The notes beneath the pieces are model-generated. The model was not told where the DNA came from and did not search any database. It saw only the letters and a program-made list of their open reading frames with translations. Shown piece after piece: positions 16,784-46,337 of a DNA stretch of 64,000 nucleotides. Positions within the stretch are counted from its first letter, which is position 1, and each line of letters opens with the position of its first letter. A program made the translations under genes and the position numbers. This stretch comes from a bacterium (candidate division B38) B3_B38 (lineage in GTDB: Bacteria > Acidobacteriota > B3-B38 > Guanabaribacteriales > B3-B38): assembly GCA_005223145.1 (NCBI GenBank), contig NJBL01000001.1:12477-76476 (forward strand), in the 5' to 3' direction.

Positions 16784-17452
16784 ATGCTATGTGTCCCGAT
16801 GGGAAAGATGGGATATTCCTTTCTAAGAACCTTTTTTATAAGACCGCTCACTATAATAGGGAAAAAAGTAGGATGGCTTTTTGGGCAGATAAAGAGAATT
16901 ATGGTCCAGCTTCTTTCCCGGCTGGGCGTTAATCCCAATCTGCTGACCTTTCTGGGGCTGCCATTCAATTGCGGGGCGGCAATCGCCTTTGCCTACGGAA
17001 GAATCAGAACGGCGGGGGTGATAATTCTTCTGGCTGGTCTGTTCGACTGGCTCGATGGCGAGGTTGCTCGCATATCAGGGCGGGTGACCAAGTTCGGCTC
17101 CTTTTTTGATTCCGTCATCGACCGCTACTCCGATATGATCCTCCTGCTGGGGATAATCATATATTTCTCTAAAAAGGACCAGATCGGCTATATAGTGCTT
17201 ACCACCATTGTGATGATGGGAGCCCTACTGACCAGCTACACCCGTGCCCGGGCTGAGAACCTTATCCCCCGCTGTCAGGTGGGATTTATGCTCCGCCCTG
17301 AAAGGATTGTCACCCTGATAATCGGATGCCTGGCTAACCATCTGCTAACCGCCCTCTGGATTCTGGCAGTTATGGCCCAGTTAGCGGCGGTTCAGCGTAT
17401 ATATTACACTTGGAAGGAATTGCTCAAGCTTCCCCAAACTGATACTAATTAA
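16784..17452 (+). CDS. CDP-alcohol phosphatidyltransferase family protein
   Basis: D(x2)DG(x2)AR...G(x3)D(x3)D motif (DWLDGEVARISGRVTKFGSFFDSVIDRYSD). Multiple TM helices. Exact start uncertain. Confidence 0.7.
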   Translation: MLCVPMGKMGYSFLRTFFIRPLTIIGKKVGWLFGQIKRIMVQLLSRLGVNPNLLTFLGLPFNCGAAIAFAYGRIRTAGVIILLAGLFDWLDGEVARISGRVTKFGSFFDSVIDRYSDMILLLGIIIYFSKKDQIGYIVLTTIVMMGALLTSYTRARAENLIPRCQVGFMLRPERIVTLIIGCLANHLLTALWILAVMAQLAAVQRIYYTWKELLKLPQTDTN

Positions 17453-23497: not shown

Positions 23498-24922
23498 TTA
23501 ATCTCCCCGGGCGAGCTCCTTTAAAGCTTTTATTAACTCCCTATCCTCTGAAGGTAGAACGGTGCGGAGGTCTATAACTACCTTCTCCTCCTGAATGCGA
23601 GCAATTACCGGAAGCGACCTCATCCTAAGCTTTCGACTAATAGTATCAGCGGTATATCGGGGAGAGTTTACTCCCATAAGCCGGGTGGGAAGCTCCACCA
23701 GGGGAACTGTCCCGCCACCCACCTTGGAAACGCCCTCCATAAGCTCTACATTTAAGGAAGAGCCCTTAACCCTACGAAGCTCCTCAATAATCGCCTCCGC
23801 CCTCCCTTGAAGCTCCGCCACCGATGTGGAGAGCATCTTCAATACCGGGATGGAGACCTCGGGTCGTCCCTTCAAGTACTCCACAAGGGTGGCTTCCAGA
23901 GCAAGATAGGTCAGCTTGCCCGCCCTGACTGCCCTCAAGAGGGGATTCACCTTGATTTTCTTGATTAACGCCCTATCACCCACTATGACCCCCGATTGGG
24001 GTCCTCCTAACAATTTATCCCCACTAAAAGTCACAATATTGGCCCCTCTTGCCAATATTTCCCCCACCGAGGGCTCATCTGGTATGCCGTAAGGGCTGAG
24101 GTCTACCATATTACCGCTGCCCATATCTTCCATCACCGGTATTCCATGCCTACGTCCCAGTGCCACCAGCTCCTCCATCCTCACCGATTCGGTGAAGCCG
24201 AGGATGCGGAAATTGCTCTGGTGTACTGCCAGCAGCAGGGCTGTATGGGGAGAGATTGCCTTCTCGTAATCCTGCAGCCTGGTCTTATTGGTGGTGCCCA
24301 CCTCTTTTAGTATCGCTCCACTCTTCTCCATGACCTCGGGTATCCTGAATGAGCCCCCTATCTCCACCAGCTCCCCCCGCGATACGATAACCTCTTTTCC
24401 CTCTGCCAGGGTGTTCAATACCAGCAATACGGCGGCAGCGTTGTTATTAGCAACCACACAAGATTTTCCTGGAAACAACCGAGAAATAAGACGCTCCACT
24501 GGAAGGTCCCGCCCCCCTCGCTTTCCCTCTTCCAGGAAAAACTCCAGATTCAGGTAGCGGCAAGAAAGCTCCTGCAATCGCTCCACCGCCGAGGGGCATA
24601 GCAGCGCCCTCCCCAGGTTGGTGTGGATGATGACCCCCGTAGCATTGATCACGCGACGAAGGGTGGGTGAGAGCTGCTCTTCCAGCCTCTGTCTCAGCTC
24701 ATCAATGAGACCCTCAACCCTCTTTTTCACCCCCTGGGGATCAGCTTTCCCCTGGGAAATCTCTTCCCTTATCACTGCCAGCAACTCCCTGATGTTATGC
24801 AGAATGAACTCCCGACTGTAATTGGATATGAGTCCCTTCACCTCATCCTTTTCCATAAGCTGGTCTACGGAGGGAAGGAGGCGATAGCTCCTCTCATGGT
24901 TTGCAGAGCTTGCATTTTTCAT
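23498..24922 (-). CDS. selA: L-seryl-tRNA(Sec) selenium transferase (selenocysteine synthase)
   Basis: PLP-lysine region FSGDKLLGGPQSGVIVG characteristic of SelA. 474 aa. Confidence 0.9.
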   Translation of the reverse strand: MKNASSANHERSYRLLPSVDQLMEKDEVKGLISNYSREFILHNIRELLAVIREEISQGKADPQGVKKRVEGLIDELRQRLEEQLSPTLRRVINATGVIIHTNLGRALLCPSAVERLQELSCRYLNLEFFLEEGKRGGRDLPVERLISRLFPGKSCVVANNNAAAVLLVLNTLAEGKEVIVSRGELVEIGGSFRIPEVMEKSGAILKEVGTTNKTRLQDYEKAISPHTALLLAVHQSNFRILGFTESVRMEELVALGRRHGIPVMEDMGSGNMVDLSPYGIPDEPSVGEILARGANIVTFSGDKLLGGPQSGVIVGDRALIKKIKVNPLLRAVRAGKLTYLALEATLVEYLKGRPEVSIPVLKMLSTSVAELQGRAEAIIEELRRVKGSSLNVELMEGVSKVGGGTVPLVELPTRLMGVNSPRYTADTISRKLRMRSLPVIARIQEEKVVIDLRTVLPSEDRELIKALKELARGD

Positions 24923-33069: not shown

Positions 33070-34317
33070 GTGGATAAAAGTGTCCTGGTTATCGGAGCTG
33101 GGGTGGCGGGTATTACAGCAGCCCTTGAGTTAGCGAACAGCGGAGTGCCGGTTGCCCTGGTAGAAAAGAGCCCGGGGCTGGGTGGTGCAGTTGCCTCATA
33201 TTGCTGCAAAGCCACCGACCAGTGCAACAAGTGCTCGGTATGCGTCGCCAATCAAAAGATGGAGGAGCTGCGGAGCGCGACCAATCTTTCACTCTTCACC
33301 AACTCCGACATTGAGAAGGTAGCCCGCAGTGATGGCGCGTTCCAAATCACGGTAACGCGCAAGCCCACCTATATTGATGACGATAAATGCGTTCGTTGTC
33401 AGCTGTGCGCTGAGAAGTGCCCCACCACGCCAAGCTCCATTTTCCTCCCTCCTCCTCACTCACCTTTGCAGAGCTATGTAATTGACCTTGATAGGTGTGT
33501 GCATTTTCAGGGCAAAAAGTGTAAGCTTTGCCAGGATGTATGCCCTACGGGAGCGATTGACCTTTCTCAAAAAGCAAGGGAGGAGAACCTTCAGGTGGGA
33601 GCCATCGTTGTGGCAACCGGCTTTTCTGCCTTTGACCCCACCAGGAAGAAGAGATATGGCTATGGAGCTCATCCCGATGTGATCACAGCCCTTGAATTGG
33701 AGGAGCAGCTGCGAATAGCAGGGAAGCTCAGCCGTCCCTCCAATGGCAGCCAGCCCAAACAGATAGCCTTTATCCAATGCTTCGGCAGCCGGGATGCTCA
33801 TGTGGGGAACAACTACTGTTCCCGAGTCTGCTGCACCTACACCATGAGGCTGGCAAACCTTCTCAAGTTCAAGCTCCCCGACTCAAGCATAACCATATTT
33901 TATATGGACATCCAGACTTTCGGAAAAGAGTTTGAGCAGTTTTATCAGCAGTGCCGCCAGAAAATTCAATTTATCCGTGATATACCCTCTCACATCCAGC
34001 AGGATGGGAATAACCAGCTCCTGATAACCTATCAGGACAGAAAAGAAGGCAAAGTGGTGCAAAGCAATTTCGACCTGGTGGTTCTTTCCGTGGGCCTTTG
34101 TCCGAGAGAAGATACCGAGAAGCTGGTTGAACTGTTGGGACTGCAGACTAACGAGCACGGCTTTTTAAAATCGCTAAGCCCCCTGCAAACCAACGAGACA
34201 GAGGCAGAGGGAATATTCCTTGCCGGCACCTGCCAGGGACCCCGGGACATAAGCGAATCTATCGCCCATTCTATCGGTGCGGCGGAGAAAGCCCTCGCCT
34301 ATCTGGGAGCCAAATAG
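33070..34317 (+). CDS. hdrA: Heterodisulfide reductase subunit A-like flavoprotein (complete HdrA-type FAD domain with inserted 2x[4Fe-4S] ferredoxin)
   Basis: GTG start. FAD Rossmann VLVIGAGVAGITAALELA. Ferredoxin CVRCQLCAEKCP and CKLCQDVCPTGAI. HdrA signature FIQCFGSRD...YCSRVCC. Ends in TAG at 34315-34317, in frame with the next ORF. Confidence 0.85.
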   Translation: MDKSVLVIGAGVAGITAALELANSGVPVALVEKSPGLGGAVASYCCKATDQCNKCSVCVANQKMEELRSATNLSLFTNSDIEKVARSDGAFQITVTRKPTYIDDDKCVRCQLCAEKCPTTPSSIFLPPPHSPLQSYVIDLDRCVHFQGKKCKLCQDVCPTGAIDLSQKAREENLQVGAIVVATGFSAFDPTRKKRYGYGAHPDVITALELEEQLRIAGKLSRPSNGSQPKQIAFIQCFGSRDAHVGNNYCSRVCCTYTMRLANLLKFKLPDSSITIFYMDIQTFGKEFEQFYQQCRQKIQFIRDIPSHIQQDGNNQLLITYQDRKEGKVVQSNFDLVVLSVGLCPREDTEKLVELLGLQTNEHGFLKSLSPLQTNETEAEGIFLAGTCQGPRDISESIAHSIGAAEKALAYLGAK

Positions 34318-35994
34318 ATGACAGAGGAGAAAAGAATAGGGATTATTCTCTGCAACTGCGGGGGAAGTCTTGAGGGTCATTTAGACCTCAAGAGACTGAA
34401 GGAATATAGCCAGGGTCTACCCCAGGTAGCTTATGTTGAGGAGCTGGGCACCTTTTGCCTTCCGGAGGATCCTCAGAAGATAGCCTCCATCATCAACAAG
34501 GAGAACCTCTCGGGCATCGTATTAGCCGGGTGTCCTCATCGGAATTCCGAAGCCATAGCTTCAGCCATAGCCCGGGAGTCTCACCTGAATCAGCATTTAA
34601 TCAACTTTGCTCCCATCAGGGAGCAGTGCGCCTGGGCCTATCCCCGGCGGCAAATAGCAACCGTAAAAGCCGAAAGGATGCTGGCATCAGCGGTAGCCCG
34701 AAACATCCGTCTTCATCCCCTGGAAGAGGAGGAGTTGTCCGCCGAGAAAAGCGTCCTTATCATAGGGGGAGGCATTGGGGGCATTCAGACCGCTCTGGAA
34801 CTCTCCCGCCTGGGATTTGGAGCCACCATACTGGAGAAGAAGTCCCACCTGGGAGGACTGATGAAAGGCACTGCCGCTCCCTTCGATTCCGTAACCCAAC
34901 CTCTGGAGCTAATTTCCTCCCGCATAGAGACCGCCACGCAAGACCCCAGGATAGATATCCTCACTTCCAGCGAACTGGTAAAGCTGGAGGGAGAGCCGGG
35001 CAGATTCCAGGCTCATATAAAACATAAAAGAAAAAAGAAGACTATAACAGCGGGCGCCGTAGTGGTGGCTGCCGGCTATCTGGTCAGTTTCCCCAAGGAG
35101 AGCTATGGATTCCCACTCTCTGAACGAGTCATCACCCAATCGCAGTTATCCGCCATACTGGCTGATGAGAAGAAGACCGAGGCTCTGCTGGGGGGAAATA
35201 AAGGAAAAGAGAGGAATCTCATCTTCATCCTCGGAATGGGCGGGGAGAGCACTCCCTTGACCACCGCCTTCACCCTCAAGGTATCATCGCTTATTAAAGA
35301 AAAGTATAAGTGGAACATCTTCATTATTTACAACAATATCAAAGTTGCCGGCGAGGGACTGGAGGCGCTCTTCCGTCAGTGCCGCAGTCAGGGTATTATC
35401 CTGTTAAGATACGATGAGCCCCGTCCCGGGTTCACCGTCAGCAAGGAGAAAATAGACATCCGCCTCAGCGGTCTGCTCACCTCATTGGAAAAAGAGGAGG
35501 AGGTAACTATCCCCGGTCACCTGATGGTGGTCGAAGAGCGGATAGAGCCCGAGCCCGACTTTGAAAACCTGGCTCAACTGTTGGGAATAAATGTTGACCC
35601 TCAGGGCTTTCTCCAGAAGGATAACCCTCATCTGTTCCCCATTGCCACTAATAAGGCGGGAGTCTTCGTGATGGGCTCTTGCCATCATCCCATGCTGCTG
35701 CCATTTATTATGGAAGAGGCGGCGGCAACAGCTTCCCATATCGCTGAGCAACTCTCTGAAGGGAAAATCAGGGTCTTCAAAGAGAGGGCAATGGTAGATA
35801 AGGGTAAGTGCACCCTTTGCCTGACCTGCATTCGTCTCTGCCCCCACCATGCCATCTCTTACGACCGAGCAGCGGTCATCTCGGAGGCTTTGTGCCAGGG
35901 CTGCGGAGTCTGCGCCAGTGAGTGTCCGGCAGAGGCGATAGAGATTAGAAACTATACCACCCATCAGCTTATGGCTGAGATAGGAGTTAGCTGA
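34318..35994 (+). CDS. hdrA: Second HdrA-type unit (Cys-rich inserted domain, second FAD site, C-terminal 2x[4Fe-4S])
   Basis: ILCNCGGSLEGHLDLKRLKEY, VLIIGGGIGGIQTALELSRLG, CTLCLTCIRLCPHH...CQGCGVCASECPAEAI. ATG directly follows the upstream TAG. Confidence 0.85.
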   Translation: MTEEKRIGIILCNCGGSLEGHLDLKRLKEYSQGLPQVAYVEELGTFCLPEDPQKIASIINKENLSGIVLAGCPHRNSEAIASAIARESHLNQHLINFAPIREQCAWAYPRRQIATVKAERMLASAVARNIRLHPLEEEELSAEKSVLIIGGGIGGIQTALELSRLGFGATILEKKSHLGGLMKGTAAPFDSVTQPLELISSRIETATQDPRIDILTSSELVKLEGEPGRFQAHIKHKRKKKTITAGAVVVAAGYLVSFPKESYGFPLSERVITQSQLSAILADEKKTEALLGGNKGKERNLIFILGMGGESTPLTTAFTLKVSSLIKEKYKWNIFIIYNNIKVAGEGLEALFRQCRSQGIILLRYDEPRPGFTVSKEKIDIRLSGLLTSLEKEEEVTIPGHLMVVEERIEPEPDFENLAQLLGINVDPQGFLQKDNPHLFPIATNKAGVFVMGSCHHPMLLPFIMEEAAATASHIAEQLSEGKIRVFKERAMVDKGKCTLCLTCIRLCPHHAISYDRAAVISEALCQGCGVCASECPAEAIEIRNYTTHQLMAEIGVS

Positions 35995-36020
35995 AAGGCT
36001 TCAAAAAAGGGGGATTTAAA

Positions 36021-37421
36021 TTGCCAAAATATGATGTTGCCATAATAGGAGGGGGACCTGGAGGTTATGTGGCTGCCATAAGGGGAGCCCAGCTGGGCGG
36101 GAGAATCTGCGTGATAGAGAAAGGAGAGCTGGGGGGAACCTGCCTTAACTGGGGCTGTATCCCCACCAAAGCGCTCATCGCCTCCACCTCAGTGCTGAGA
36201 TACATCAACGAGGCAAAGCGCTACGGGATAAACATCAAGGGCGATGTAGAAGCAGACTTTCCAGCCATTATGGAGAGAAAAAACAAGGTGGTAGCCACCC
36301 TCGTTAATGGTATAAAGACCGTATTCAAAAGCTATGATATTGACCTCATAAAGGGCACCGGCTCATTCCTCGCCCCCCATAGGCTTAAGGTAACCCTCCC
36401 CGATGGCTCTACTCAGGAGATAGAGGCGGAAAAGGTGCTCATCGCCACCGGTTCTGTCCCCGCTGTCATTCCAGCCTTCCCCATCGATGGGAAGAAGATC
36501 ATCTCCAGCGACGAAGCCGTCAACCTGAAAGAAGTCCCTAAAAGCATTCTGATTATCGGCGCCGGAGCTATCGGCTGCGAGTTTGCTTTCATTCTGCACG
36601 AACTGGGCTGTCAGGTTACCATGGTAGAGATGCTCGCTCATGCGGTCCCTCTGGAGGACATAGACACCTCCAAGACCATGGACCGAGAGCTAAAGAAGCG
36701 CAAGATCAAGCTCTACTGCAGCCAGAAGGTTCAGAAGGTCAAGGAAGACGCTGATGGGATGATGTTAGCCACCCTGGAAAGCGGCGAGGAGATAAAAGCC
36801 GAAAAGGTGCTGGTCTCCATAGGGAGAGTCTTTAATGTGAAGGGGCTTGACCTCGAAAACATCAAAGTAGCCCAGGGAAGGAGGGGTGACATTCTGGTGA
36901 ACGACCGCCTGGAGACCAATGTCCCCGGAGTATACGCCATTGGAGATGTGATTGGGGGAATTATGTTAGCTCATGTCGCCTCAAAAGAGGGGATAGTAGC
37001 CGTCGAGAACGCTCTGGGCGGCAATAAAAGGATAGACTACCGGGTGGTGCCCGCGACCATCTTCAGCAATCCTGAGATTGGCAGCGTCGGTCTGAAAGAG
37101 AGAGAAGCCAGGAAGCAGGGATACGACATCCGCATAGGGATGTTTCCCTACCGGGCTCTGGGGAAATCTCATGCCATGGGTGAGATCGTGGGACAGGCGA
37201 AAATCATCGCCGATGCCAAAACCGACAAGATTCTGGGGGTCCACATCGTGGGGGCGCATGCCACAGACCTTGTCCACGAGGCTGCTATAGCCATCCAGCA
37301 CGGATTAACCGCTCAGCAGTTGGGTGATACCATACACTCCCATCCTACTTTATCTGAAGCTCTTATGGAAGCCGCCCACGATGTCCACCAGATAGCTATA
37401 GATATGCCCAAAAAAAACTAA
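36021..37421 (+). CDS. lpdA: Dihydrolipoyl dehydrogenase (E3 / L-protein)
   Basis: FAD site DVAIIGGGPGGYVAA. Redox-active disulfide GGTCLNWGCIPTK. NAD site IIGAGAIGCEFA. C-terminal HSHPTLSEA interface motif. 466 aa. Confidence 0.9.
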   Translation: MPKYDVAIIGGGPGGYVAAIRGAQLGGRICVIEKGELGGTCLNWGCIPTKALIASTSVLRYINEAKRYGINIKGDVEADFPAIMERKNKVVATLVNGIKTVFKSYDIDLIKGTGSFLAPHRLKVTLPDGSTQEIEAEKVLIATGSVPAVIPAFPIDGKKIISSDEAVNLKEVPKSILIIGAGAIGCEFAFILHELGCQVTMVEMLAHAVPLEDIDTSKTMDRELKKRKIKLYCSQKVQKVKEDADGMMLATLESGEEIKAEKVLVSIGRVFNVKGLDLENIKVAQGRRGDILVNDRLETNVPGVYAIGDVIGGIMLAHVASKEGIVAVENALGGNKRIDYRVVPATIFSNPEIGSVGLKEREARKQGYDIRIGMFPYRALGKSHAMGEIVGQAKIIADAKTDKILGVHIVGAHATDLVHEAAIAIQHGLTAQQLGDTIHSHPTLSEALMEAAHDVHQIAIDMPKKN

Positions 37422-37483
37422 AAAAGGGAAATTTTTAAATGGTCTCAGATATGTTAAACTTAATCGCAAAGGAGGCCCAATAA

Positions 37484-37858
37484 ATGGGAGACGAGGGTTA
37501 CAAGTTTCACAAAGAGCATTTATGGTTTAAGGCGGAAGGCGATACCGCGTTGGTTGGTATCACCGATTACGCCCAGCAGCAGTTGGGAGATATTGTATAT
37601 GTTGACCTGCCCGATGTAGGGGACGAGATTAAAAAAGACGAGTCCCTGGGGGAGGTCGAGTCGGCTAAAAACCTCTCCGACCTTATTGCGCCGGTAAGCG
37701 GAGAGGTAATCGAAATCAACAACGACGCCGTTGACGACCCCTCAATCATCAACAAAGACCCTATGGGTGAGGGATGGCTTCTCAAAGTAAAGCTGTCCGA
37801 CCCATCAGAGCTGGACGACCTCCTCTCTGAAGAAGATTACAAGAAATTGGCAAAATAG
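37484..37858 (+). CDS. gcvH: Glycine-cleavage H-protein-type lipoyl carrier protein
   Basis: VGITDYAQQQLGDIVYVDLPDVG and lipoyl-lysine motif GEVESAKNLSDLIAPVSGEV. 124 aa. Confidence 0.9.
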   Translation: MGDEGYKFHKEHLWFKAEGDTALVGITDYAQQQLGDIVYVDLPDVGDEIKKDESLGEVESAKNLSDLIAPVSGEVIEINNDAVDDPSIINKDPMGEGWLLKVKLSDPSELDDLLSEEDYKKLAK

Positions 37859-37912
37859 CCTGAGAGAAGTCCATCTGTCTGGGGAAAGAGGGGTAGTGTG
37901 AGGTTGTAAGGC

Positions 37913-38359
37913 ATGAGCGACCAGGAGAGCCTCGGGAAGGAATCCGACGATTTTTGTCCACGAATAGTAGCCTTCTGTTGCCAGCGTTCAGCCTACCGTG
38001 CAGCAGATTTAGCAGGGGAGATGCACCTTGGTTTTCCCGAAGGGCTTGATATTATTCAGGTCCCTTGCACCGGCAGGGTCGACCTCGTCTATCTGCTGCG
38101 GTCACTGGAAGAGGGCGCCGATGGGGTGCTCATCCTTGCCTGTTTTGAGGACAACTGCAAATACATCTCAGGCAACATACGCGCCCGCAGACGGGTGGAG
38201 TACGCCCGAAAACTCCTCAAAGAGCTCGGACTGGAGGAGAAGAGGGTAGCCATCGGGAACCTCGCCTCTAACACGCCCCATCGGTTTGTAGAGCTCACCC
38301 AAGCAATGAGGGAAGAAATTAAAAAATTAGGACCAAGCCCCTTGCGGGCTAAGCAATAA
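37913..38359 (+). CDS. mvhD: Methyl-viologen-reducing hydrogenase delta subunit-like protein (MvhD/FlxD), Cys version
   Basis: Conserved CCQRSAY, VPCTG, and ACFEDNCKY motifs. 148 aa. Confidence 0.85.
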   Translation: MSDQESLGKESDDFCPRIVAFCCQRSAYRAADLAGEMHLGFPEGLDIIQVPCTGRVDLVYLLRSLEEGADGVLILACFEDNCKYISGNIRARRRVEYARKLLKELGLEEKRVAIGNLASNTPHRFVELTQAMREEIKKLGPSPLRAKQ

Positions 38360-38381: not shown

Positions 38382-41300
38382 ATGGGCAACGAACAGAAAA
38401 AAGTTGGCGCAGTGCTGGTAGTGGGAGGTGGAGTCGGCGGTATGCAAGCCGCCCTCGACCTGGCGGACTCCGGCTTCAAAGTTTACCTGGTAGAGAAAAA
38501 GAGTTACATCGGCGGAGTAATGGCTCAGCTCGACAAGACCTTCCCCACTAACGACTGCGCGATGTGCATAGTAGCCCCCAGGCTGGTGGAGACAGGAAGG
38601 CATCTCAACATAGAGACCATCACCAATGCTGAGATAGATAAGGTCGAAGGAAAACCGGGAGACTTCAAAGTCACCGTCCGCAAGAAAGCCCGATACATTG
38701 ACCTTGACATATGCACCGGCTGCGGAGAATGCGCCAAAGTCTGCCCTGTGGAGATAGGGAGTGAGTTCGACCTGGGAATGGTCAACCGTCATGCCGCCTA
38801 TCGGGGCTACCCTCAGGCGGTCCCCAGCGCCTATACCATTGAGAAGACGGGGATAGGACCCTGCACCCTTACCTGCCCTGCAGGGGTAAACGCTCACGGG
38901 TATGTGGCGCTCATAGCTGAGGGAAAATTCGCCGAAGCGCTGACCTTGGAGAGAAGACGGAACCCATTCGCAGGTATCTGCGGGCGAGTCTGTCACCACC
39001 CCTGCGAAATAGCCTGTCGCCGGGGCGAATATGACCAGCCCATTTCCATCTGCCACCTCAAACGTTTCCTGGCAGATTGGGAGCTGGAGCACGGACCCCT
39101 CCCCCTCCCCACCATAGAAAAGCCCAAAAAGCAAAAAGTGGCTATTATCGGCTCCGGTCCGGCAGGTCTGGCAGCCGCCCACGACCTCGCCCTGATGGGA
39201 TACAAGGTCACCATCTTCGAAGCCCTGCCAGTAGCCGGAGGAATGCTGCGAACAGGCATCCCTGCCTACAGGCTGCCCCGCGATGTGCTCGACTACGAAA
39301 TAAAAAGAATTACCGACCTGGGGGTGAAGCTCAAGCTCAATACCCCCATCGGCAAGAAATTAACTATTGATGCCCTCAAGAAGAAGGGTTATAAAGCCAT
39401 CTTCATCGCCATAGGCGCCCATAAAGGACTGAAGCTCCGCATCCCCGGAGAAGAAGATTATGAGGGCTTTATGGACTCTGTCAGCTTCCTCCGCCAGGTC
39501 AACCTCGGCGAAAAAGTGAGCCCGGTAAAGAGGGTGCTTATCATCGGCGGCGGGAATGCAGCCATAGATTCTGCCCGCGCCTCTCTGAGGATAGGCTGTG
39601 AGGAGGTATTCATCGTCTATCGGCGGTCGCGTAAGGAGATGCCCGCCAACGAGCCAGAGATTCAAGCGGCAGAGTTCGAAGGGGTAAAAATCCACTACCT
39701 GGCTGCTCCGGTGAGTATCCTCGGCTCCAATGGCAAGGTTACCGGCATGGAGTGCATCCGCATGAGGCTGGGGGAGCCTGATGCCAGTGGTCGCCGAAGA
39801 CCTATCCCCATAGAGGGGACCGAGTTCGTAATAGAAGCCGACCGCATCATCCCTGCCATCAGTCAGGAACCCGACATTTCCTTCCTTTCCGCTGACCATA
39901 AGTTCAATATATCCCGCTGGAATTCCTTTGTGGTAAATGAGGTCAGCTACCAGACCAATATCCCGGGAATCTTTTCCGCTGGGGATGCGGTGACCGGACC
40001 CAACACGGTCATAGATGCCATTGCTGCCGGTAAAGAGGTAGCCATCTCCATTGACCGGTATATTCAGGGGAAAGACCTCCTGGCTGACAGACCGGAAAAG
40101 AAGCCCTGCGAGGGAATGCCAGGACAAAAGGCAGGACCACCCAAACCCCGGCAGGAGATGCCTGCCCTAACTCGTGAAAAAAGGGAAAAGAACTTCAAGG
40201 AGGTAGAACTCGGCTTCACCGAGGAGATGGCTGTTGAAGAAGCCAGGCGATGCCTTGATTGCGGCGTATGCTCCGAATGCCTGGAGTGTGTTAAAGCCTG
40301 CGAAGCCAAAGCCATCGCCCACGAGATGTCTGATGAGCAGTTAGAGGAACTGTCGGTCGGAGCCATAATACTGGCTCCCGGCTACCAACTCTTCCCCGCT
40401 GAGCAAGCTCAGGAGTTCGGCTACGGCAGGTTCCCCAATGTGGTCAGTAGTCTGGAGTTTGAACGCATCCTCTCAGCCAGCGGTCCTTATATGGGGAAGG
40501 TGTTGCGACCCTCCGACCAGGATAAGCCGAAAAAAATTGCCTTCATCCAGTGTGTCGGCTCACGCGATGTGGAGAGAAACTACTGTTCGTCTGTGTGCTG
40601 TATGTACGCCATTAAGGAGGCGGTTATTGCCCGGGAGCATGATCCTGATATCGAGTGTCACATTTTCTATATCGACCTGCGAGCCTTCGGCAAAGGCTTT
40701 GATGAATATTACGAGCGAGCCAAGGAGAGCGGCATCAAGTTTACCCGCTGCCGCCCATCTTCGGTGAAAGAGATACCCCACAGCAAAGACCTCGTGGTCC
40801 GCTATCAGACTGAGGACGGAAGGTTTATCGACGAGGAGTTCAATCTGGTGGTGCTCTCCTGTGGTCTCCAGCCGCCCGAGGGTGTGGAAGAGTTAGCCTC
40901 CACATTGGGGCTGAAACTCGACCAGCATAAGTTCTGCCAGACAGAGAAATTTACCCCCATTGAGACCTCCCAGCCCGGTGTTTTCGTCTGCGGACCCTTC
41001 TCCGAACCCAAGGATATACCAGAAACGGTGACCGAAGCCAGCGGCACCGCCGCTTTGGCTATGGGGATGTTAGCGCCTGCTCGAGGGGAGCTGATCAAGG
41101 AGAAGGAATATCCTCCTGAAAAGGATGTAACCGGGCAGCCACCCCGCATAGGGGTATTTATATGCCATTGCGGCAAGAACATAGGGGGCGTCATTGAAGT
41201 GAAGAAGCTGGTAGAATATGCCAGCCATCTCCCCGATGTGGCTTATGCCACCGATATGATATACACCTGCTCCCAGGATGCCCAGGAGATTATGAAACAG

Positions 41301-42809
41301 ACCATCGAAGAGCACAAGCTGAATCGAGTGGTGGTCGCCTCCTGTACCCCCCGAACCCACGAGCCCCTCTTCCAGGAGACCATCCGCCAGGCGGGGTTGA
41401 ATCCCTATCTGTTTTCCATGGCCAATATTCGAGACCAGTGCACCTGGGTTCACATGCACGAGGCTGACAGCGCCCTGGAAAAGAGCAAGGTGCTGGTTCG
41501 TATGGCTGCTGCCCGAGCCCGCTACATCCAGCCCCTCCACAAGGAAACCATCGGTTTAACCAAGGAAGTCCTGGTCATAGGCGGTGGGGCAGCTGGAATG
41601 GTAGCCGCCCTCAATATGGCGGATGAAGGATACAATGTCCATCTGATAGAGAAAGAAGAGGTGCTGGGAGGCAACCTGAGGCATATTTACTACATCCTTG
41701 AGGGGATAGACCCTCAGAAATATCTGGCAGAGCTGATAGATAAGGTCACTTCAAACCCAAAGATTACCGTCTACCTGGGAAGTGCTCTTACCGGGTTTTC
41801 GGGATTTATCGGCAACTTCCAGGCTGCCATAAGCACCAACGGCGGACCGCCGGAAAATATAAACTGCGGAGTAGCGATAGTAACCACCGGAGGCACTGTC
41901 TACCAGGGAGAGGAGTATCTTTACGGAAAGGATGACAGAGTCATTAACCAGCAGAACCTGGAGGAGACCATCTATCACCATCCGGAGCGGATAAGAGAGC
42001 TGGGACAGGTGGTGATGATCCAATGTGTGGGTTCGCGAGAGCCCGACCATCCCTCCTGCAGCCGCATCTGCTGCGGAGAAGCGATAAAGAACGCATTGAA
42101 AATCAAAGAGATAAGTCCATCGACCGATGTTTTCATCCTTTATAGAGACATCAGAGCCTACGGCTTCCGGGAGAAATATTACCGGCAAGCCAGAGAGCAG
42201 GGGGTCTATTTTATCCGCTATGAGGCTGAGGAAAAGCCCGAAGTAACCAACGAGGGAGCGCTGAAAGTCAGAGTTAAGGATTATATCTTCGGAGGAACAA
42301 TGGAGCTGAGACCCGACCTGCTGGTACTGAGCACGGGAGTCAGAGCCCATCCCGACAGCGAGGAGCTGGCTACCATGCTTAAGGTACCCTTGACTCAGGA
42401 GAAGTTCTTCCTGGAAGCTCATATGAAGCTCCGACCGGTTGACTTCTCCGCTGACGGCATCTTTCTGGCGGGGCTGGCTCATTATCCGAAATATATTGAC
42501 GAATCGATTGCCCAGGCACGGGCGGCGGTATCGCGGGCAAGCAGAGTCATCTGGCAGGATACCTTGCAGGTGGGAGGAGCTATATCCCGGGTGGACGAGA
42601 ACCTGTGTGCGGCCTGCCTCACCTGCATCAGGGTCTGCCCTTATGATGCCCCCGCCTTCCGTGATGGAGTAGCTTATATTGAGATAGCCAAATGTCAGGG
42701 ATGTGGAATATGTGCCGATGCCTGTCCTGCAAAAGCAATACAGCTATTGCATTCCACTGACCAACAGATTATAGCTATGACCGACGCTTTGGCTGAGGCA
42801 GCTTCCTGA
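38382..42809 (+). CDS. hdrL: HdrL-type giant fusion: N-terminal HdrA FAD domain + ferredoxin + GltD/NfnB-like NAD(P)H:FAD module + second HdrA unit with C-terminal 2x[4Fe-4S]
   Basis: VLVVGGGVGGMQAALDLA, NDCAMCIVAPR, CTGCGECAKVCPV. GltD-like FAGICGRVCHHPCEIAC + VAIIGSGPAGLAAAHDLALMGYKVTIFE...GGMLRTGIPAYRLP + VLIIGGGNAAID. Second unit FIQCVGSRD...YCSSVCC, GVFICHCGKNIGG, VLVIGGGAAGMVAALNMA, CAACLTCIRVCP...CQGCGICADACPAKAI. Confidence 0.85.
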   Translation: MGNEQKKVGAVLVVGGGVGGMQAALDLADSGFKVYLVEKKSYIGGVMAQLDKTFPTNDCAMCIVAPRLVETGRHLNIETITNAEIDKVEGKPGDFKVTVRKKARYIDLDICTGCGECAKVCPVEIGSEFDLGMVNRHAAYRGYPQAVPSAYTIEKTGIGPCTLTCPAGVNAHGYVALIAEGKFAEALTLERRRNPFAGICGRVCHHPCEIACRRGEYDQPISICHLKRFLADWELEHGPLPLPTIEKPKKQKVAIIGSGPAGLAAAHDLALMGYKVTIFEALPVAGGMLRTGIPAYRLPRDVLDYEIKRITDLGVKLKLNTPIGKKLTIDALKKKGYKAIFIAIGAHKGLKLRIPGEEDYEGFMDSVSFLRQVNLGEKVSPVKRVLIIGGGNAAIDSARASLRIGCEEVFIVYRRSRKEMPANEPEIQAAEFEGVKIHYLAAPVSILGSNGKVTGMECIRMRLGEPDASGRRRPIPIEGTEFVIEADRIIPAISQEPDISFLSADHKFNISRWNSFVVNEVSYQTNIPGIFSAGDAVTGPNTVIDAIAAGKEVAISIDRYIQGKDLLADRPEKKPCEGMPGQKAGPPKPRQEMPALTREKREKNFKEVELGFTEEMAVEEARRCLDCGVCSECLECVKACEAKAIAHEMSDEQLEELSVGAIILAPGYQLFPAEQAQEFGYGRFPNVVSSLEFERILSASGPYMGKVLRPSDQDKPKKIAFIQCVGSRDVERNYCSSVCCMYAIKEAVIAREHDPDIECHIFYIDLRAFGKGFDEYYERAKESGIKFTRCRPSSVKEIPHSKDLVVRYQTEDGRFIDEEFNLVVLSCGLQPPEGVEELASTLGLKLDQHKFCQTEKFTPIETSQPGVFVCGPFSEPKDIPETVTEASGTAALAMGMLAPARGELIKEKEYPPEKDVTGQPPRIGVFICHCGKNIGGVIEVKKLVEYASHLPDVAYATDMIYTCSQDAQEIMKQTIEEHKLNRVVVASCTPRTHEPLFQETIRQAGLNPYLFSMANIRDQCTWVHMHEADSALEKSKVLVRMAAARARYIQPLHKETIGLTKEVLVIGGGAAGMVAALNMADEGYNVHLIEKEEVLGGNLRHIYYILEGIDPQKYLAELIDKVTSNPKITVYLGSALTGFSGFIGNFQAAISTNGGPPENINCGVAIVTTGGTVYQGEEYLYGKDDRVINQQNLEETIYHHPERIRELGQVVMIQCVGSREPDHPSCSRICCGEAIKNALKIKEISPSTDVFILYRDIRAYGFREKYYRQAREQGVYFIRYEAEEKPEVTNEGALKVRVKDYIFGGTMELRPDLLVLSTGVRAHPDSEELATMLKVPLTQEKFFLEAHMKLRPVDFSADGIFLAGLAHYPKYIDESIAQARAAVSRASRVIWQDTLQVGGAISRVDENLCAACLTCIRVCPYDAPAFRDGVAYIEIAKCQGCGICADACPAKAIQLLHSTDQQIIAMTDALAEAAS

Positions 42810-42813
42810 AGAA

Positions 42814-43257
42814 ATGGGGGAATCAGGATTGAAGGAGTTTGAACCAGAAATTCTGGCTTTTGCCTGCCACTATTGTGCCTATGCAGCAGCCGACCTGGCA
42901 GGCTCTATGAGGCTGCAATACCCCACCAATGTCAAAATAATAAAGCTTCCTTGTTCGGGGAAAATTGACATTATCTATATTTTAAAAGCATTGGAAGCGG
43001 GAGCCGATGGCATACTGGTGGCCGGGTGACTGGAAGGAACCTGCCATTACCTGGAAGGTAATTCGAGGGCAAAGCAGAGAGTGGAGCATGCCAAAAAGCT
43101 CCTTGAAGAGATTGGTATGGAAGGGGAGCGGGTGGAGATGGTCTTCATCTCAGCATCGGAGGGAAATAGATGGGCGGAGACCATAAGCCAGATGAGAGAG
43201 AAACTGAAAGAGCTGGGACCCAATCCCCTTAAACAGAACCGAGGGAGTGGAAAATAA
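42814..43257 (+). CDS. mvhD: MvhD-like selenoprotein: in-frame TGA (Sec) at 43027-43029 replaces the first Cys of the CxxxxCxY motif
   Basis: Upstream part AFACHYCAYAAADLAG...KLPCSGKID...ILVAG, then TGA, then LEGTCHYLEGN...RVEHAKKLL, in frame to TAA at 43255-43257. Aligns residue-for-residue with the Cys paralog (ILACFEDNCKY vs ILVAG-U-LEGTCHY). selA is in the window. A hairpin lies 14 nt downstream. Confidence 0.75.
43043..43070 (+). ncRNA. Candidate bacterial SECIS stem-loop within the mvhD mRNA
   Basis: ATTACC-TGGAA-GGTAAT perfect 6-bp stem with G-containing apical loop (43046-43062), flanked by GCC/GGC, 14 nt 3' of the UGA. Confidence 0.45.
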
Positions 43258-43925
43258 TGATAACCGCTGTAAGGAAGCCACTCAACGAAATTATAGAAAT
43301 GGTAGCCCCCTGCGAGAAGATATTGGTAACTGGCTGTGGCACCTGCGTTACTATAGATTACTCTGGCGGGGCTAAAGAGGCAGCCATCCTGGCCTCGCAG
43401 CTGCGTATTGCGCGGCGGCTGGGAGGGAAAAAGCTGGAAACCCTGGAGCAGACGGTGGAGCGACAGTGCGAATGGGAGTTTGTAAAAGAGTTTACCGACC
43501 ATGCGGCTGAGTGCCAGGCGATAATAAGCATGGCTTGTGGAGCGGGAATACAGACGGTAGCCGCTGCCTTCCCTGATAAGCCGGTCTTCCCCGGAGTCAA
43601 CACCCGATTTATCGGAATGCCCCAGAAACAGGGTGTCTGGGAGGAGAGATGCATCTGCTGTGGCAACTGCGTTCTCCATCTTACCGGTGGGCTTTGCCCA
43701 TTTGCCCGTTGCGCCAAGACCCTTCTCAACGGACCCTGCGAGGGGTCGCAGGACGGCAAGTGTGAGGTGAACCGAGAGCTTGACTGCGTCTGGCAGCAGA
43801 TATACGACAGCTTAAAAGAGAGAGGGAGGCTGGCTGACCTGCAGAAGATATTCCCTCTGCGCGACTGGTCTACCGGTGAGGATGGAGGCTACCGGATAAC
43901 CGTCAGGGAGGATATGATGCTATGA
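43257..43925 (+). CDS. metV: MetV: zinc-ribbon/Cys-rich partner of methylene-THF reductase (MTHFR C-terminal-domain-like protein)
   Basis: CEKILVTGCGTC ... CICCGNCVLHLTGGLCPFARC ... NGPCEGSQDGKC pattern. ATG overlaps the stop of the Sec-mvhD (TAATG). Confidence 0.8.
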   Translation: MITAVRKPLNEIIEMVAPCEKILVTGCGTCVTIDYSGGAKEAAILASQLRIARRLGGKKLETLEQTVERQCEWEFVKEFTDHAAECQAIISMACGAGIQTVAAAFPDKPVFPGVNTRFIGMPQKQGVWEERCICCGNCVLHLTGGLCPFARCAKTLLNGPCEGSQDGKCEVNRELDCVWQQIYDSLKERGRLADLQKIFPLRDWSTGEDGGYRITVREDMML

Positions 43926-44806
43926 ACGCCAACAGCGGTCTGAAAAAGCTATTAGCCAAGGAGGAGTTTGTAGTCATTGCCGGCATCGGTATCCCCCGGG
44001 GGGCTGATTTCAAACCACTGGAAGAGCGATACAAGCTATTAGAGAAGAAGGTCAATGCCTTTTATATACCCGATAACCCGGGAGCAAATGTCCACCTACT
44101 GGGTCTGGCAGCAGCGGTCCACCTTGAGAAGCTGGGCGGGGAGACGGTGCTGGAGCTGAACTGCCGGGATAGAAATCGCATCGCCATCCAGAGCTCTATT
44201 CTGGGAGCGGCTGCTCTGGGTATACCCAACCTTCTCTTCTCTACCGGCGACCATCAGACCCTGGGCAATTTCAGAGGGGCTAAGAGGGTCTACGATGTGG
44301 ACCTGACTCAGGCCATCCAGGTAGCCAGGGGGATGAGGGATGAGAAAAAATTCTCCAATGGTGAGGAGGTAGCTCAACCGCCCTCCATCTTCATCGGTGC
44401 CGAGGCAAACCCCTTTGCCGACCCCTTTGAATTCAGAGCAGCCCTTATGGCGAAAAAGGTCGAAGCAGGTGCGGACTTTGTTCAGATCCGAGCGGTCTTC
44501 GACCTGGAGCGCTTCGGGAAATGGATAAAGCTGGTGCGGCAGCAAGAACCCCTTCAGAAAATCCCCATCCTGGCAGGGATAATACCTCTGGTCTCGGTGG
44601 AGCAAGCCAAATCCCTTCAGGAAGCACCGGGGATGATAGTGCCCGACTCCATCATCCAGCGGCTGGAAGCGAGCGGCAAACCCGAGGATGAGGGCATCAA
44701 GATAGCAAAGGAGATTATCGCCCAGGTGAAGAAAACGGAAGGGGTGAGAGGGATTGTGCTCCACGCCAGCGGGATGGAAAGCCTGGTGCCCGACCTCATC
44801 AAATAG
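43922..44806 (+). CDS. metF: 5,10-methylenetetrahydrofolate reductase
   Basis: MTHFR TIM-barrel fold (FVVIAGIGIPRG, LELNCRDRNRIAIQSSILGAAALGIPNLLFSTGD, GADFVQI). Overlaps the metV stop (ATGA). Confidence 0.85.
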   Translation: MNANSGLKKLLAKEEFVVIAGIGIPRGADFKPLEERYKLLEKKVNAFYIPDNPGANVHLLGLAAAVHLEKLGGETVLELNCRDRNRIAIQSSILGAAALGIPNLLFSTGDHQTLGNFRGAKRVYDVDLTQAIQVARGMRDEKKFSNGEEVAQPPSIFIGAEANPFADPFEFRAALMAKKVEAGADFVQIRAVFDLERFGKWIKLVRQQEPLQKIPILAGIIPLVSVEQAKSLQEAPGMIVPDSIIQRLEASGKPEDEGIKIAKEIIAQVKKTEGVRGIVLHASGMESLVPDLIK

Positions 44807-44871
44807 GATGGTTATTCTGAATAGCTTAATGCACTTCTTCTTTGAATGGAGGATTCAAGGGAGCTGAGACA

Positions 44872-45435
44872 ATGGATAAGGTGTTAACGCCGGAAACCCT
44901 GAAATCGGATTTTATAGACAAAATCGCCCAGGAAAGCGACCAGAATGTGTACCTCTGCTATCAGTGCCGCAAGTGTGCCGCCGGGTGCCCGGTCACCTAT
45001 GAAACTGACTATACCCCCTTCCAGATAATTCAGGGGGTGATATATGGCCAACGGGAGCTGGTGCTCAACAGCAAGATGATATGGCTATGCACCACATGTG
45101 AGACCTGCACCACCCGCTGCCCCCAGGAGATAGATATCGCCCGGGTGATGGATGCCGCCCGAATTATCGCCCAGCGAGAGGGAATAAAGGCTAAATATCC
45201 GGTGGTGCCCGCCTTTTTCCAAACCTCATTACAAAATATCAGTTGGTTCGGGAGGCTGTACGAGGTGGGACTGATAATGATGCTCAAGCTGCGGACAAAG
45301 GATTTCACTAAAGATATGGGCCTGGGGATAAGGATGTTCTTAAATAGAAAGCTCAAGCTCACTCCCAAGCCCACCGCATTGCGAGAAGTAAGGCGGATTT
45401 TCAAGAAAATCAAAGAGATAGAGGAGACCAGTTGA
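44872..45435 (+). CDS. hdrC: Heterodisulfide reductase subunit C-like (2x[4Fe-4S])
   Basis: CYQCRKCAAGCP and CTTCETCTTRCP. Start placed at ATG 44872 (AAGGGAG 9 nt upstream). The ORF track begins at 44842 without an RBS. Confidence 0.85.
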   Translation: MDKVLTPETLKSDFIDKIAQESDQNVYLCYQCRKCAAGCPVTYETDYTPFQIIQGVIYGQRELVLNSKMIWLCTTCETCTTRCPQEIDIARVMDAARIIAQREGIKAKYPVVPAFFQTSLQNISWFGRLYEVGLIMMLKLRTKDFTKDMGLGIRMFLNRKLKLTPKPTALREVRRIFKKIKEIEETS

Positions 45436-46337
45436 TGAGATATGCCTACTACCCGGGATGCTCTCTCCACTCCACTGCCTTTGAATATGACCTCTCCATG
45501 AGAGCTGTGCTGGAAAAGCTGGGGATAGAGTATGAGGAGCTGCGGGGATGGATTTGCTGCGGCACGTCCCCGGCTCACTGCAGCTCGAAGCTTCTGGGGG
45601 TAACCCTTCCAATAAAGAACCTGGCTATCGCCGAGGAGGACGGCTTCCGGCAGATGATAGTCCCCTGCGCTTCGTGTTTCTCCCGGTTGAAGATCGCCCT
45701 GCACGAGACAAGCGAGAATCCCGAGCTAAAGGAGAAAGTGGAGCAGGTCCTCAACTATGCCTATCAGGGTAGTGTTGAGGTTCGCCATCCTCTGGATATC
45801 CTCTATAACGAGGTGGGACTGGAACGGATAAGGGAATCGGTCAGAGAAAACCTCTCACGGATGAAGGTAGTGTGCTATTACGGCTGCCTCTTAACCCGTC
45901 CCCCCAAGGCGGTTAATTTCGACCAATGTGAGTATCCTATGACCATGGACAACTTGCTAAAAGGCTGCGGAATAGAGGTGCTCGACTGGTCTTACAAAAC
46001 CGATTGCTGCGGTGCGGGGCAGGCTTTGGCACTGACCAATATCGTAGTCAAGCTGAGCCGAGACATCCTGGACAACGCCAAGCAGGTGGGCGCCGAGGCA
46101 GTGGCAGTAGCGTGTCCGCTGTGTCACAGCAACCTTGATGCCCGACAGAGTGAGATAGAGCAGACTTATAAACTGAGTCTCAATCTGCCCATCTTCTATT
46201 TCAGCCAGCTCATCGCCCTGGCTATGGGAGTGGACAAGAATAAAATAGGATTGCAAGGGCATCTGGTAAATCCCTTTCCCCTGCTCAAAAAAATAAAATC
46301 CCCTTCATCCCCTGCCAGGCCGCCGTCTCGGGGATAA
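45432..46337 (+). CDS. hdrB: Heterodisulfide reductase subunit B-like (two CCG Cys-rich domains)
   Basis: YYPGCSLHS, WICCGTSP, CASC, YYGCLLTRPP, TDCCGAG, CPLC. Confidence 0.9.
   Translation: MMRYAYYPGCSLHSTAFEYDLSMRAVLEKLGIEYEELRGWICCGTSPAHCSSKLLGVTLPIKNLAIAEEDGFRQMIVPCASCFSRLKIALHETSENPELKEKVEQVLNYAYQGSVEVRHPLDILYNEVGLERIRESVRENLSRMKVVCYYGCLLTRPPKAVNFDQCEYPMTMDNLLKGCGIEVLDWSYKTDCCGAGQALALTNIVVKLSRDILDNAKQVGAEAVAVACPLCHSNLDARQSEIEQTYKLSLNLPIFYFSQLIALAMGVDKNKIGLQGHLVNPFPLLKKIKSPSSPARPPSRG

Follow-up and report, generated by a model that had tools for sequence, protein, structure and literature searches.

Positions 42814-43257 of the forward strand of the window (the whole stretch of 64,000 nucleotides analyzed here, 64 kb) very probably encode a full-length MvhD-type [2Fe-2S] electron-transfer subunit in which codon 72, a UGA, is decoded as selenocysteine (Sec). 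The gene (mvhD) starts with an ATG at 42814, 4 nt past the stop codon of an HdrL-type gene, ends with a TAA at 43255-43257 and contains 147 codons including the UGA at 43027-43029. It was cut by the ORF lister into two pieces (42814-43029 and 43081-43257). An earlier reading made from the sequence only had proposed that translation continues in frame across this TGA and that the continuation restores the full MvhD fold. Both proposals were confirmed: 75 sense codons lie between the TGA and the TAA, and when Cys was put for the stop, the read-through product covered the entire Pfam profile PF02662 (FlpD/MvhD; 1-123 of 123 positions) with 173.8 bits (cutoff 22.3). A PDB sequence search aligned solved MvhD chains over residues 8-141 (E-values 2e-44 to 4e-36), and the alignment with PDB 7bkb_F (E = 2e-44) was end to end.

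All five conserved Cys/Sec positions of the family are found in the product (C18, C21, C47, U72 and C77). Positions 18, 21, 72 and 77 were tabulated in 98 related copies, and C47 was taken from the alignments to solved chains. The residues around Sec72 read ...GILVAG-U-LEGTCHYLEGNSR. A second, all-Cys mvhD copy is present in the window at 37913-38359 on the forward strand (PF02662, 142.2 bits; Cys pattern CC..S..C..C....C). In a gap-free BLASTP alignment of the two copies (47 % identity), position 72 falls on the Cys of ...LACFEDNCKY, the first Cys of the C-x4-C-x-Y motif, exactly where the sequence-only reading had placed it. The comparison with known VhuD/MvhD selenoproteins gave the same column, as position 72 corresponds to the second Sec (X) of VhuD (PDB 9sfi_K). 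MvhD/VhuD (PF02662) is already on the list of selenoprotein families (PMC13188914). This family is widespread in bacteria and its genes are usually mis-annotated; mvhD is a genuine member of it, but not a remarkable one. The window contributes one more example of Sec-MvhD and no new chemistry.

The gene directly 5' of mvhD (38382-42809, forward strand) encodes an HdrL-type flavoprotein of 1475 aa, in which a GltD-like NAD(P)H module is inserted among HdrA-like domains. Its Pfam matches are FAD_oxidored, Fer4, Fer4_20 and Pyr_redox_2 (252-550), with a second FAD site at 1063-1099 and a further Fer4 at 1403-1455. Since almost every related locus has HdrL directly 5' of mvhD, it is likely the partner of Sec-MvhD. 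Downstream, and on the same strand, are metV (43257-43925; PF12225, 121 bits), metF for methylene-tetrahydrofolate reductase (43922-44806; PF02219, 78.2 bits), an hdrC-like gene for a ferredoxin subunit (44842-45435; Fer4_8 and Fer4_17 matches) and an hdrB-like gene (45432-46337; TIGR03288, E = 2e-56, below the equivalog cutoff), each in a conserved position. With metV, metF, hdrA-type, hdrB, hdrC and mvhD clustered in the window and their order conserved across phyla, the HdrL-MvhD-MetV-MetF-HdrC-HdrB cluster is assigned, by sequence, as a Moorella-type methylene-tetrahydrofolate reductase module. The same clustered set is known from the MetFV-HdrABC-MvhD system of Moorella thermoacetica (PMC5861303, PMC5736913), but HdrA is here the 1475-aa HdrL with its inserted GltD-like NAD(P)H domain, and the gene order differs. 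A selenoprotein is thereby placed in an electron-bifurcating methylene-tetrahydrofolate reductase module in this Aminicenantes-like bacterium and in many Chloroflexota, so selenium supply may bear on C1 metabolism in sediment lineages.

The presence of both a Cys and a Sec copy had been read earlier as selenium-dependent tuning of the electron-transfer module, and we found no support for this. If the two copies were interchangeable, the Sec form would be used with selenium and the Cys form without it, like Vhu and Vhc of Methanococcus. For Vhu/Vhc there is documented exchange of Sec and Cys isoenzymes (PMC13518236), and the same was proposed for Desulfobacterium autotrophicum (PMC2702500); in the window the same HdrL gene is flanked by the Cys and the Sec copy, an arrangement shared with L002 and L003, the two genomes closest to this one. 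We nevertheless consider the switch unlikely. An isoenzyme pair would consist of closely similar isoforms with the subunit set duplicated as a unit, whereas here the copies share only the 47 % identity given above, and where the Sec copy has C21 the Cys copy has Ser, with a CC doublet in its stead. HdrL, MetVF and HdrCB are single, and mvhD is the one gene of the set that occurs twice. The Cys copy lies directly 3' of two HdrA-like genes, Lpd and GcvH, also in L002 and L003, which suggests that it has its own partner module. Elsewhere, too, second mvhD copies each come after their own HdrA-type gene, as reported for D. autotrophicum (PMC2702500), and the metagenomic contig L158 carries two Sec-type pattern sites 3.8 kb apart (pattern matches alone). 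We also considered the Cys paralog as the member of a cross-phylum "upstream" orthogroup. This grouping was rejected, as upstream copies in Chloroflexota are 37-45 % identical to the Cys copy and 46-54 % to the Sec copy, values that likewise argue against a switch between the two forms.

The TGA itself recurs widely. By motif search, 51 of 80 genome-contig loci had TGA in the position-72 column and all other copies had TGY; by tblastn, 54 related MvhD copies (genome-contig loci and the window) had TGA in this column and the rest TGY. The assemblies that contain the TGA-bearing loci are labelled Aminicenantes, Chloroflexota or Thermodesulfobacteriota, and the Sec-type pattern with TGA was found at no fewer than 121 metagenomic sites (at least 121 being a lower bound). 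Past the TGA, all 51 of the genes extracted can be read in frame for at least 68 codons. Among the Sec-type loci, the entropies at the three codon positions were 0.74/0.49/1.37 after the hairpin described below and 0.57/0.21/1.34 upstream. Judged by these values, the frame beyond the UGA is under purifying selection with the same signature as the upstream part.

A hairpin follows the UGA at 43046-43062 (ATTACC/TGGAA/GGTAAT). Positions 43046-43051 pair with 43057-43062 around the apical loop UGGAA (43052-43056), and the whole lies within a conserved block, CAUUACCUGGAAGGUAAU, at 43045-43062 on the forward strand. The 6-bp stem and 5-nt loop were as first described, but the spacer to the UGA measures 16 nt (43030-43045) and not the 14 nt given before. 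The block is essentially invariant in the 51 Sec-type loci, synonymous sites included, while the same sites are free in 31 Cys-type homologs. Thus the hairpin codons in Sec-type genes are His CAU, Tyr UAC, Leu CUG and Asn AAU (51/51 each), with Gly as GGU in 49 genes and GGA in two, and their third-position entropy is 0.18 vs about 1.3 for the codons on either side. Across the 51 loci the stem pairs fully (100 %) and includes one compensatory pair, an A-U to U-A change by which Tyr becomes Phe and a Gly codon is altered synonymously. This pair was also scanned in metagenomes with a pattern open to all four combinations, and at 121 sites among the matches listed it was A..T in 101, T..A in 20 and mismatched in none. 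RNAalifold, unprompted, returned the same helix.

When the window sequence was folded by itself, the hairpin was not distinguished. The 54-nt fold gave z = -1.4, with 18 of 200 shuffles folding equally well, and its unconstrained MFE of -13.2 kcal/mol was built on another hairpin, CCUGGAA/GGUAA/UUCGAGG at 43050-43068 (forward strand), with a pair probability of about 0.68 against 0.14 for the hairpin at 43046-43062. The competing hairpin is window-specific and shows no conservation; over the 51 loci its pairing reaches only 56 %, no better than in shuffles, and for this reason it was not accepted as the functional element. From the single sequence the hairpin at 43046-43062 is no better than chance, but the comparison of loci goes far beyond what chance would give, and on the strength of that conservation we identify it, the hairpin to which the sequence-only reading had pointed, as a conserved SECIS. 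The frozen synonymous sites, the covariation and the geometry all point this way.

The bSECIS model (PMC13188914) describes a loop of 3-9 nt with a G in its first two nucleotides and the form N1-G-[G/U]-N-N2, a stem of 4-16 bp, a distance of 16-37 nt from the UGA and an MFE of -7.5 kcal/mol or lower. The hairpin has a 5-nt loop (U-G-G-A-A), a stem of 6 bp (7 with the U-A closing pair) and a UGA-to-loop distance of 22 nt, so that the geometry part of the earlier expectation stands, although the MFE of the 54-nt fold uses the other hairpin. Loop size, stem length, the loop Gs with the N1-N2 closing pair and the UGA-to-loop distance agree with the bSECISearch consensus. The element differs from that consensus in being a very small AU-rich hairpin that is almost invariant across phyla, and in its energy: alone it reaches -4.5 to -5.1 kcal/mol, and the threshold is passed only with extra lower pairings, at -11.9 kcal/mol for the 54-nt fold constrained to keep the hairpin. 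It also has no Rfam match, as neither a SECIS nor another relevant family was detected in the whole window at the gathering threshold or in 42950-43150 at E-values up to 10.

Of the Sec machinery, selA (selenocysteine synthase) is found at 23498-24922 on the reverse strand, about 18-19 kb upstream of mvhD as had been noted earlier (TIGR00474 equivalog, 576.6 bits, cutoff 267.9, profile positions 2-455 of 455). ARAGORN detected no tRNA, and therefore no tRNA-Sec, within the 64 kb window, and no match to selB or selD was obtained among the 48 larger ORFs scanned in it. The window was also scanned for further Sec sites. A possible second selenoprotein at an HdrA-like junction (34315-34320) was rejected, as the in-frame stop is a TAG with an ATG directly after it, which indicates two genes and no Sec site. 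The TGA at 50968, which joins two open frames, is an ordinary stop ahead of atpB, and the remaining long-flanked TGAs are in alternative frames of real genes.

Three other explanations of the TGA in mvhD were weighed. The UGA might be read without selenium, with a near-cognate Cys or Trp inserted and the hairpin merely stimulating read-through, and some bacterial Sec-UGA codons can indeed be misread when selenium limits. This is very unlikely here, in view of the intact selA in the window, the fit of the hairpin to the SelB-type bSECIS model and the proven Sec site at this position in VhuD. It is still less probable that the TGA is a true stop which leaves a pseudogene or a split gene with one polypeptide of 71 aa and another of 58 aa that starts from GTG 43081. 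Standard gene callers do split the gene in this way, the 71-aa fragment being the only product of mvhD called on a public contig, and TGA is an ordinary stop elsewhere in the window, where it ends 14 of 48 genes. A true stop is opposed by the recurrence of the TGA in several phyla and in metagenomes, by purifying selection on a frame that is open both before and after the TGA, and by an RNA hairpin conserved at synonymous sites; moreover, the split would put four cluster-binding Cys positions on two chains. A sequencing or assembly error for TGC or TGT, in favor of which there is nothing specific beyond the fact that a one-base change would give a Cys codon, is the least probable, as the same TGA is found in three independent assemblies with 95-97 % protein identity (L001 from Logan SRR35494108, L002 and L003) and in dozens of more distant loci. 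The apparent stop in mvhD is, from these comparisons, almost certainly a selenocysteine codon.

Decoding by the bacterial Sec pathway would proceed as follows. With the ribosome at the UGA, the 17-nt hairpin AUUACC-UGGAA-GGUAAU located 16 nt downstream would be bound by SelB carrying Sec-tRNA(Sec), the latter presumably made by the SelA encoded in the same window. Sec would then be inserted at codon 72 and the 75 remaining codons translated. Gene order and the solved Mvh-Hdr structures suggest that Sec-MvhD serves as adaptor in an HdrL-MvhD-MetVF-HdrCB complex. This would be a variant form of the Moorella-type electron-bifurcating methylene-tetrahydrofolate reductase, with a GltD-like NAD(P)H domain inserted into HdrA.

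In this complex, Sec72 would occupy one of four [2Fe-2S]-ligating positions. Cys16 of Methanothermobacter marburgensis MvhD (C21 here) was named an "additional" non-ligand Cys (PMC13580544), so the other four conserved Cys positions, position 72 among them, are putative ligands by elimination from that statement rather than from coordinates. The residues next to the putative ligand position 72 face the redox-active Cys pair of HdrA (PMC13580544), and by analogy with the methanogen Mvh-Hdr structures the Sec72 loop would face this pair and the flavin of HdrA. With Sec at a ligand position on the HdrA-facing loop, selenium would most likely tune the electron hand-over from the [2Fe-2S] cluster to the flavoprotein, and the placement bears on electron transfer between the MvhD cluster as donor and the bifurcating flavin as acceptor. 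A more specific proposal, that Sec72 is a direct selenolate ligand of the cluster on the face giving electrons to the HdrA-type flavin, is put forward only tentatively, and we regard it as possible rather than probable. If it is true, both Sec residues of the family would have a role at the point where Hdr-type bifurcation goes over from a one-electron cluster to a two-electron flavin, and the near-invariant 18-nt SECIS would represent a new family-specific RNA motif which could repair many split mvhD annotations.

The closest selenoprotein counterpart is VhuD of Methanococcus, the delta subunit of the F420-non-reducing hydrogenase (9sfi chain K). It has the same PF02662 fold (E = 2.8e-40) and Sec in the same column as residue 72, and like mvhD it is an adaptor to an HdrA-type bifurcating flavoprotein (PMC13518236). 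In VhuD, however, a further Sec is found at the CxxU position (C21 here), so that both sites are used; its SECIS, VhuD being archaeal, is in the 3' UTR and not in the coding region as in mvhD; and it docks a [NiFeSe] hydrogenase or Fdh, with no MetVF reductase. In D. autotrophicum HRM2, four Sec-containing genes (MvhD1/2/3/5) directly follow HdrA or HdrL (an HdrA-GltD fusion), and Sec and non-Sec mvhD paralogs occur in one genome as here (PMC2702500). This species belongs to another phylum, and its HdrL contains Sec, unlike the HdrL of the window.

Bacterial MvhD adaptors carry Sec at either of two positions. It is at residue 72 in Chloroflexota- and Aminicenantes-type genes, and at the equivalent of residue 21, not 72, in the Desulfobacterales-type orthologs L031, L036, L048 and L062. 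BamF of the class II benzoyl-CoA reductase of Geobacter metallireducens, a bacterial Sec-containing MvhD homolog in a relay from [2Fe-2S] to an HdrA-type flavin (bioRxiv 10.64898/2026.04.10.717634), has a non-ligand Sec19 near the cluster instead of Sec at position 72 and is more than 100 residues longer; we infer, not from an alignment, that Sec19 is the same position as residue 21. In the tentative proposal above, the residue-72 and residue-21 sites would each have their own SECIS, with the apical motif ACCUGGNAGGU common to both. The pattern TGA-N12-TGY-CATTWCCTGGANGGWAAT recovers Sec-type mvhD genes with at least 120 matches, and the split annotation seen on that public contig probably affects many other contigs.

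Judged by its sequence, the window mvhD (42814-43257, plus strand) is almost certainly a genuine selenoprotein gene; apart from the folding energy, it passed every family and recoding test run. The frame opens with ATG at 42814, meets an in-frame TGA at 43027-43029 (codon 72) and continues for 75 further sense codons to TAA at 43255-43257. The mechanical ORF list breaks the gene in two (42814-43029 and 43081-43257); translation of the window confirmed the coordinates, the in-frame TGA and the continuation described in the sequence-only reading. When the stop was translated as Cys, the product matched the Pfam FlpD/MvhD profile over positions 1-123 of 123 (173.8 bits), so that the full domain is restored as proposed, and residues 8-141 aligned with solved MvhD subunits (7bkb_F, E=2e-44; 5odc_D, E=2.5e-37). 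A gap-free alignment with the Cys-type paralog at 37913-38359 (47% identity) placed residue 72 opposite the first Cys of C-FEDN-C-K-Y, where the Sec had been put. In VhuD (cryo-EM entry 9sfi, chain K), residue 72 aligned with one of two non-standard residues printed X; the second X is the CxxU position and equals C21 of the window MvhD.

A scan of 185,579 species-representative genomes yielded 80 loci. The two closest (97% and 95% identical) belong to one Candidatus Aminicenantes MAG and one unclassified MAG, which makes an Aminicenantes-type bacterium the most likely source of the window. TGA in the residue-72 column was found by motif search in 51 sequences (the window, its close relative L001 and 49 of the 80 loci), mostly from Anaerolineae and other Chloroflexota, with one labelled Thermodesulfobacteriota. 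By tblastn, 54 MvhD copies carried TGA in this column and all other copies TGY. The frame after the TGA stayed open for at least 68 codons in 51/51 Sec-type sequences. Nucleotide entropy by codon position was 0.74/0.49/1.37 downstream of the hairpin discussed below versus 0.57/0.21/1.34 upstream of the UGA; as this pattern is alike on both sides, the post-UGA sequence is evidently translated and under purifying selection. TGA terminates 14 of the 48 window genes. The genetic code here is the standard one: a single site is recoded, and TGA as a codon is not reassigned.

The hairpin ATTACC/TGGAA/GGTAAT was correctly located at 43046-43062 in the sequence-only reading, but 16 nt, rather than the 14 stated there, separate it from the UGA. 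Folding of the window alone did not favor it: the 54-nt fold gave z = -1.4 (18/200 shuffles folded equally well), and the MFE fold picked a competing hairpin at 43050-43068 (pair probability ~0.68 vs 0.14). By itself the first hairpin reaches -4.5 to -5.1 kcal/mol. An Rfam search of the window and hairpin region returned nothing for a SECIS element. Since the single-sequence fold is no better than chance and Rfam was blank, the case for a SECIS rests on comparison across loci, which did bear it out. The competing hairpin was rejected as a functional element, being 56% paired across loci and no better than shuffles. It arises from codons after the SECIS (UUCGAGG) in the window only; at that place its close relatives (L001-L003) read CAGAGG or CUGAGA.

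The 18-nt CAUUACCUGGAAGGUAAU, which spans +18 to +35 when counted from the UGA's U, was essentially invariant in 51/51 Sec-type genes, synonymous positions included. Its His (CAU), Tyr (UAC), Leu (CUG) and Asn (AAU) codons were each identical in 51/51 and its Gly codon was GGU in 49 and GGA in 2, while neighbouring Gly, Thr and Cys codons varied freely in the same genes. The six hairpin codons were free to vary in 31 Cys-type homologs. Thus, the constraint acts on the RNA and not on the protein, and only where the UGA is present. Stem pairing was found in 100% of cells across the 51 loci, the sole variation, seen in two loci, being compensatory (A-U to U-A): there, Tyr-to-Phe is matched by synonymous GGU to GGA. 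RNAalifold recovered the same helix unprompted. When metagenome contigs were scanned with a pattern that accepted any of the four combinations at the two covarying positions, at least 121 distinct sites, each open on both sides, were obtained; among the matches listed, 101 were A..T, 20 T..A and 0 mismatched, where independence of the two positions would leave about a quarter mismatched. Flanking peptides at these sites were far more diverse (HPGECHYLEGN, HLGECHYLDGN and others), which indicates that a wide range of bacterial MvhD genes use this SECIS.

The hairpin geometry agrees with this assignment. The published bSECIS consensus has an apical loop of 3-9 nt with G within the first two positions (typically N1-G-[G/U]-N-N2, N1 pairing with N2), an upper stem of 4-16 bp, a UGA-to-loop distance of 16-37 nt and an MFE no higher than -7.5 kcal/mol (PMC13188914). 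The window loop, U-G-G-A-A, is an exact instance, and its stem (6 bp; 7 bp if the closing U-A is counted) and 22-nt spacing fall inside these ranges; the energy was reached only with lower pairings (-11.9 kcal/mol, fold constrained to keep the hairpin). The selA gene noticed upstream is present at 23498-24922 (minus strand; equivalog-level score); tRNA-Sec, selB and selD were not found within the 64-kb window.

The five conserved family Cys positions are C18, C21, C47, U72 and C77 in the window MvhD. Alignment with solved chains showed that the 'additional', non-ligand Cys of M. marburgensis MvhD (Cys16; PMC13580544) corresponds to C21. With C21 set aside, position 72 falls among the four remaining and is, by elimination, probably one of the four [2Fe-2S] cluster ligands, which makes the earlier '[2Fe-2S] motif' wording reasonable. 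In M. marburgensis, His68 and Asp71, after the residue-72 equivalent, face the Cys202/Cys205 pair of HdrA (PMC13580544). Desulfobacterales-type orthologs share the HdrL-MvhD-MetVF context and have Cys at position 72; TGA was confirmed at their C21 equivalent (CCNF-U-GY) in three loci (L031:6043, L036:1060 and L062:6043), and L048 has the same peptide. Their downstream hairpin, CGGACC-UGGCA-GGUUCG, has the apical motif ACCUGGNAGGU in common with the window SECIS. Archaeal VhuD carries Sec at both positions, whereas the window MvhD has Sec at 72 alone and Cys at 21.

The gene order in the window is HdrL, mvhD, metV, metF, hdrC-like and hdrB-like. The HdrL-type flavoprotein (38382-42809; 1475 aa) consists of HdrA-like domains for FAD and Fe-S centers, into which a GltD-like NAD(P)H module is inserted. 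HdrL-MvhD-MetV-MetF recurs in Chloroflexota, the Aminicenantes relatives, Desulfarculia and Thermoleophilia; the MvhD of these clusters contains either Sec or Cys, and HdrC-HdrB often come next. The genes correspond to those of the purified MetFV-HdrABC-MvhD methylene-tetrahydrofolate reductase of Moorella thermoacetica (PMC5861303), and marine Chloroflexi have been noted to carry such a cluster (PMC5736913). The first description of HdrL, in which HdrA is fused to glutamate synthase and mvhD comes directly after, was in Desulfobacterium autotrophicum, whose genome also has four Sec-containing mvhD genes (PMC2702500). The window also has a FolD (methylene-THF dehydrogenase/cyclohydrolase) gene at 8035-8961, upstream of the MetVF genes by 34 kb, as would suit an organism with a tetrahydrofolate C1 pathway. 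In some long-read MAG contigs (L069, L060 and L079) HdrL matched in many short pieces; these look like frameshift assembly errors, not recoding.

Nothing was found in support of the proposal that the Cys/Sec pair provides selenium-dependent tuning. It is unlikely that the copies are interchangeable isoforms of such a switch: they are only 47% identical, mvhD is the sole duplicated subunit, and the Cys copy has a CC doublet, Ser in place of C21 (C-Q-R-S for C-x-x-C) and C-K-Y, against C-H-Y/F in most of the family. It also has its own context, directly after two HdrA-like genes (33070-34317 and 34318-35994, with TAG then ATG between them), dihydrolipoamide dehydrogenase (36021-37421) and GcvH (37484-37858), and the Lpd-GcvH-MvhD part of this arrangement is kept in L002 and L003. 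Additional mvhD copies elsewhere each sit behind their own HdrA-type gene, and one metagenomic contig (L158) has two Sec-type pattern sites 3.8 kb apart (728-763 and 4556-4591, both minus strand), so a locus may carry two Sec-form copies. It is more economical to assume one MvhD for each HdrA-type module, and 33070-38359 possibly encodes an Hdr-type module that works with a lipoyl carrier protein. The Cys copy as a cross-phylum conserved orthogroup was ruled out by identity comparison of upstream copies.

MvhD/VhuD (PF02662) already figures in lists of selenoprotein families and has been verified by experiment (PMC13188914, PMC9312934), and bacterial Sec-MvhD genes adjoining hdrA/hdrL have been reported since 2009 (PMC2702500). 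The lineage record may be new, because our literature search found no paper discussing selenoproteins in Aminicenantes. Two details are new: the near-invariant 18-nt SECIS common to several phyla, and the placement of Sec at one or the other of two positions in orthologous bacterial MvhDs, where each position has a hairpin of its own and both hairpins carry the apical ACCUGGNAGGU.

Elsewhere in the window, a homolog of the tetraether lipid synthase Tes (17494-19104; NF045702, 571 bits vs cutoff 450) adjoins a gene resembling archaetidylinositol-phosphate synthase (16784-17452), a pair suggesting that this bacterium may make ether lipids that span the membrane.
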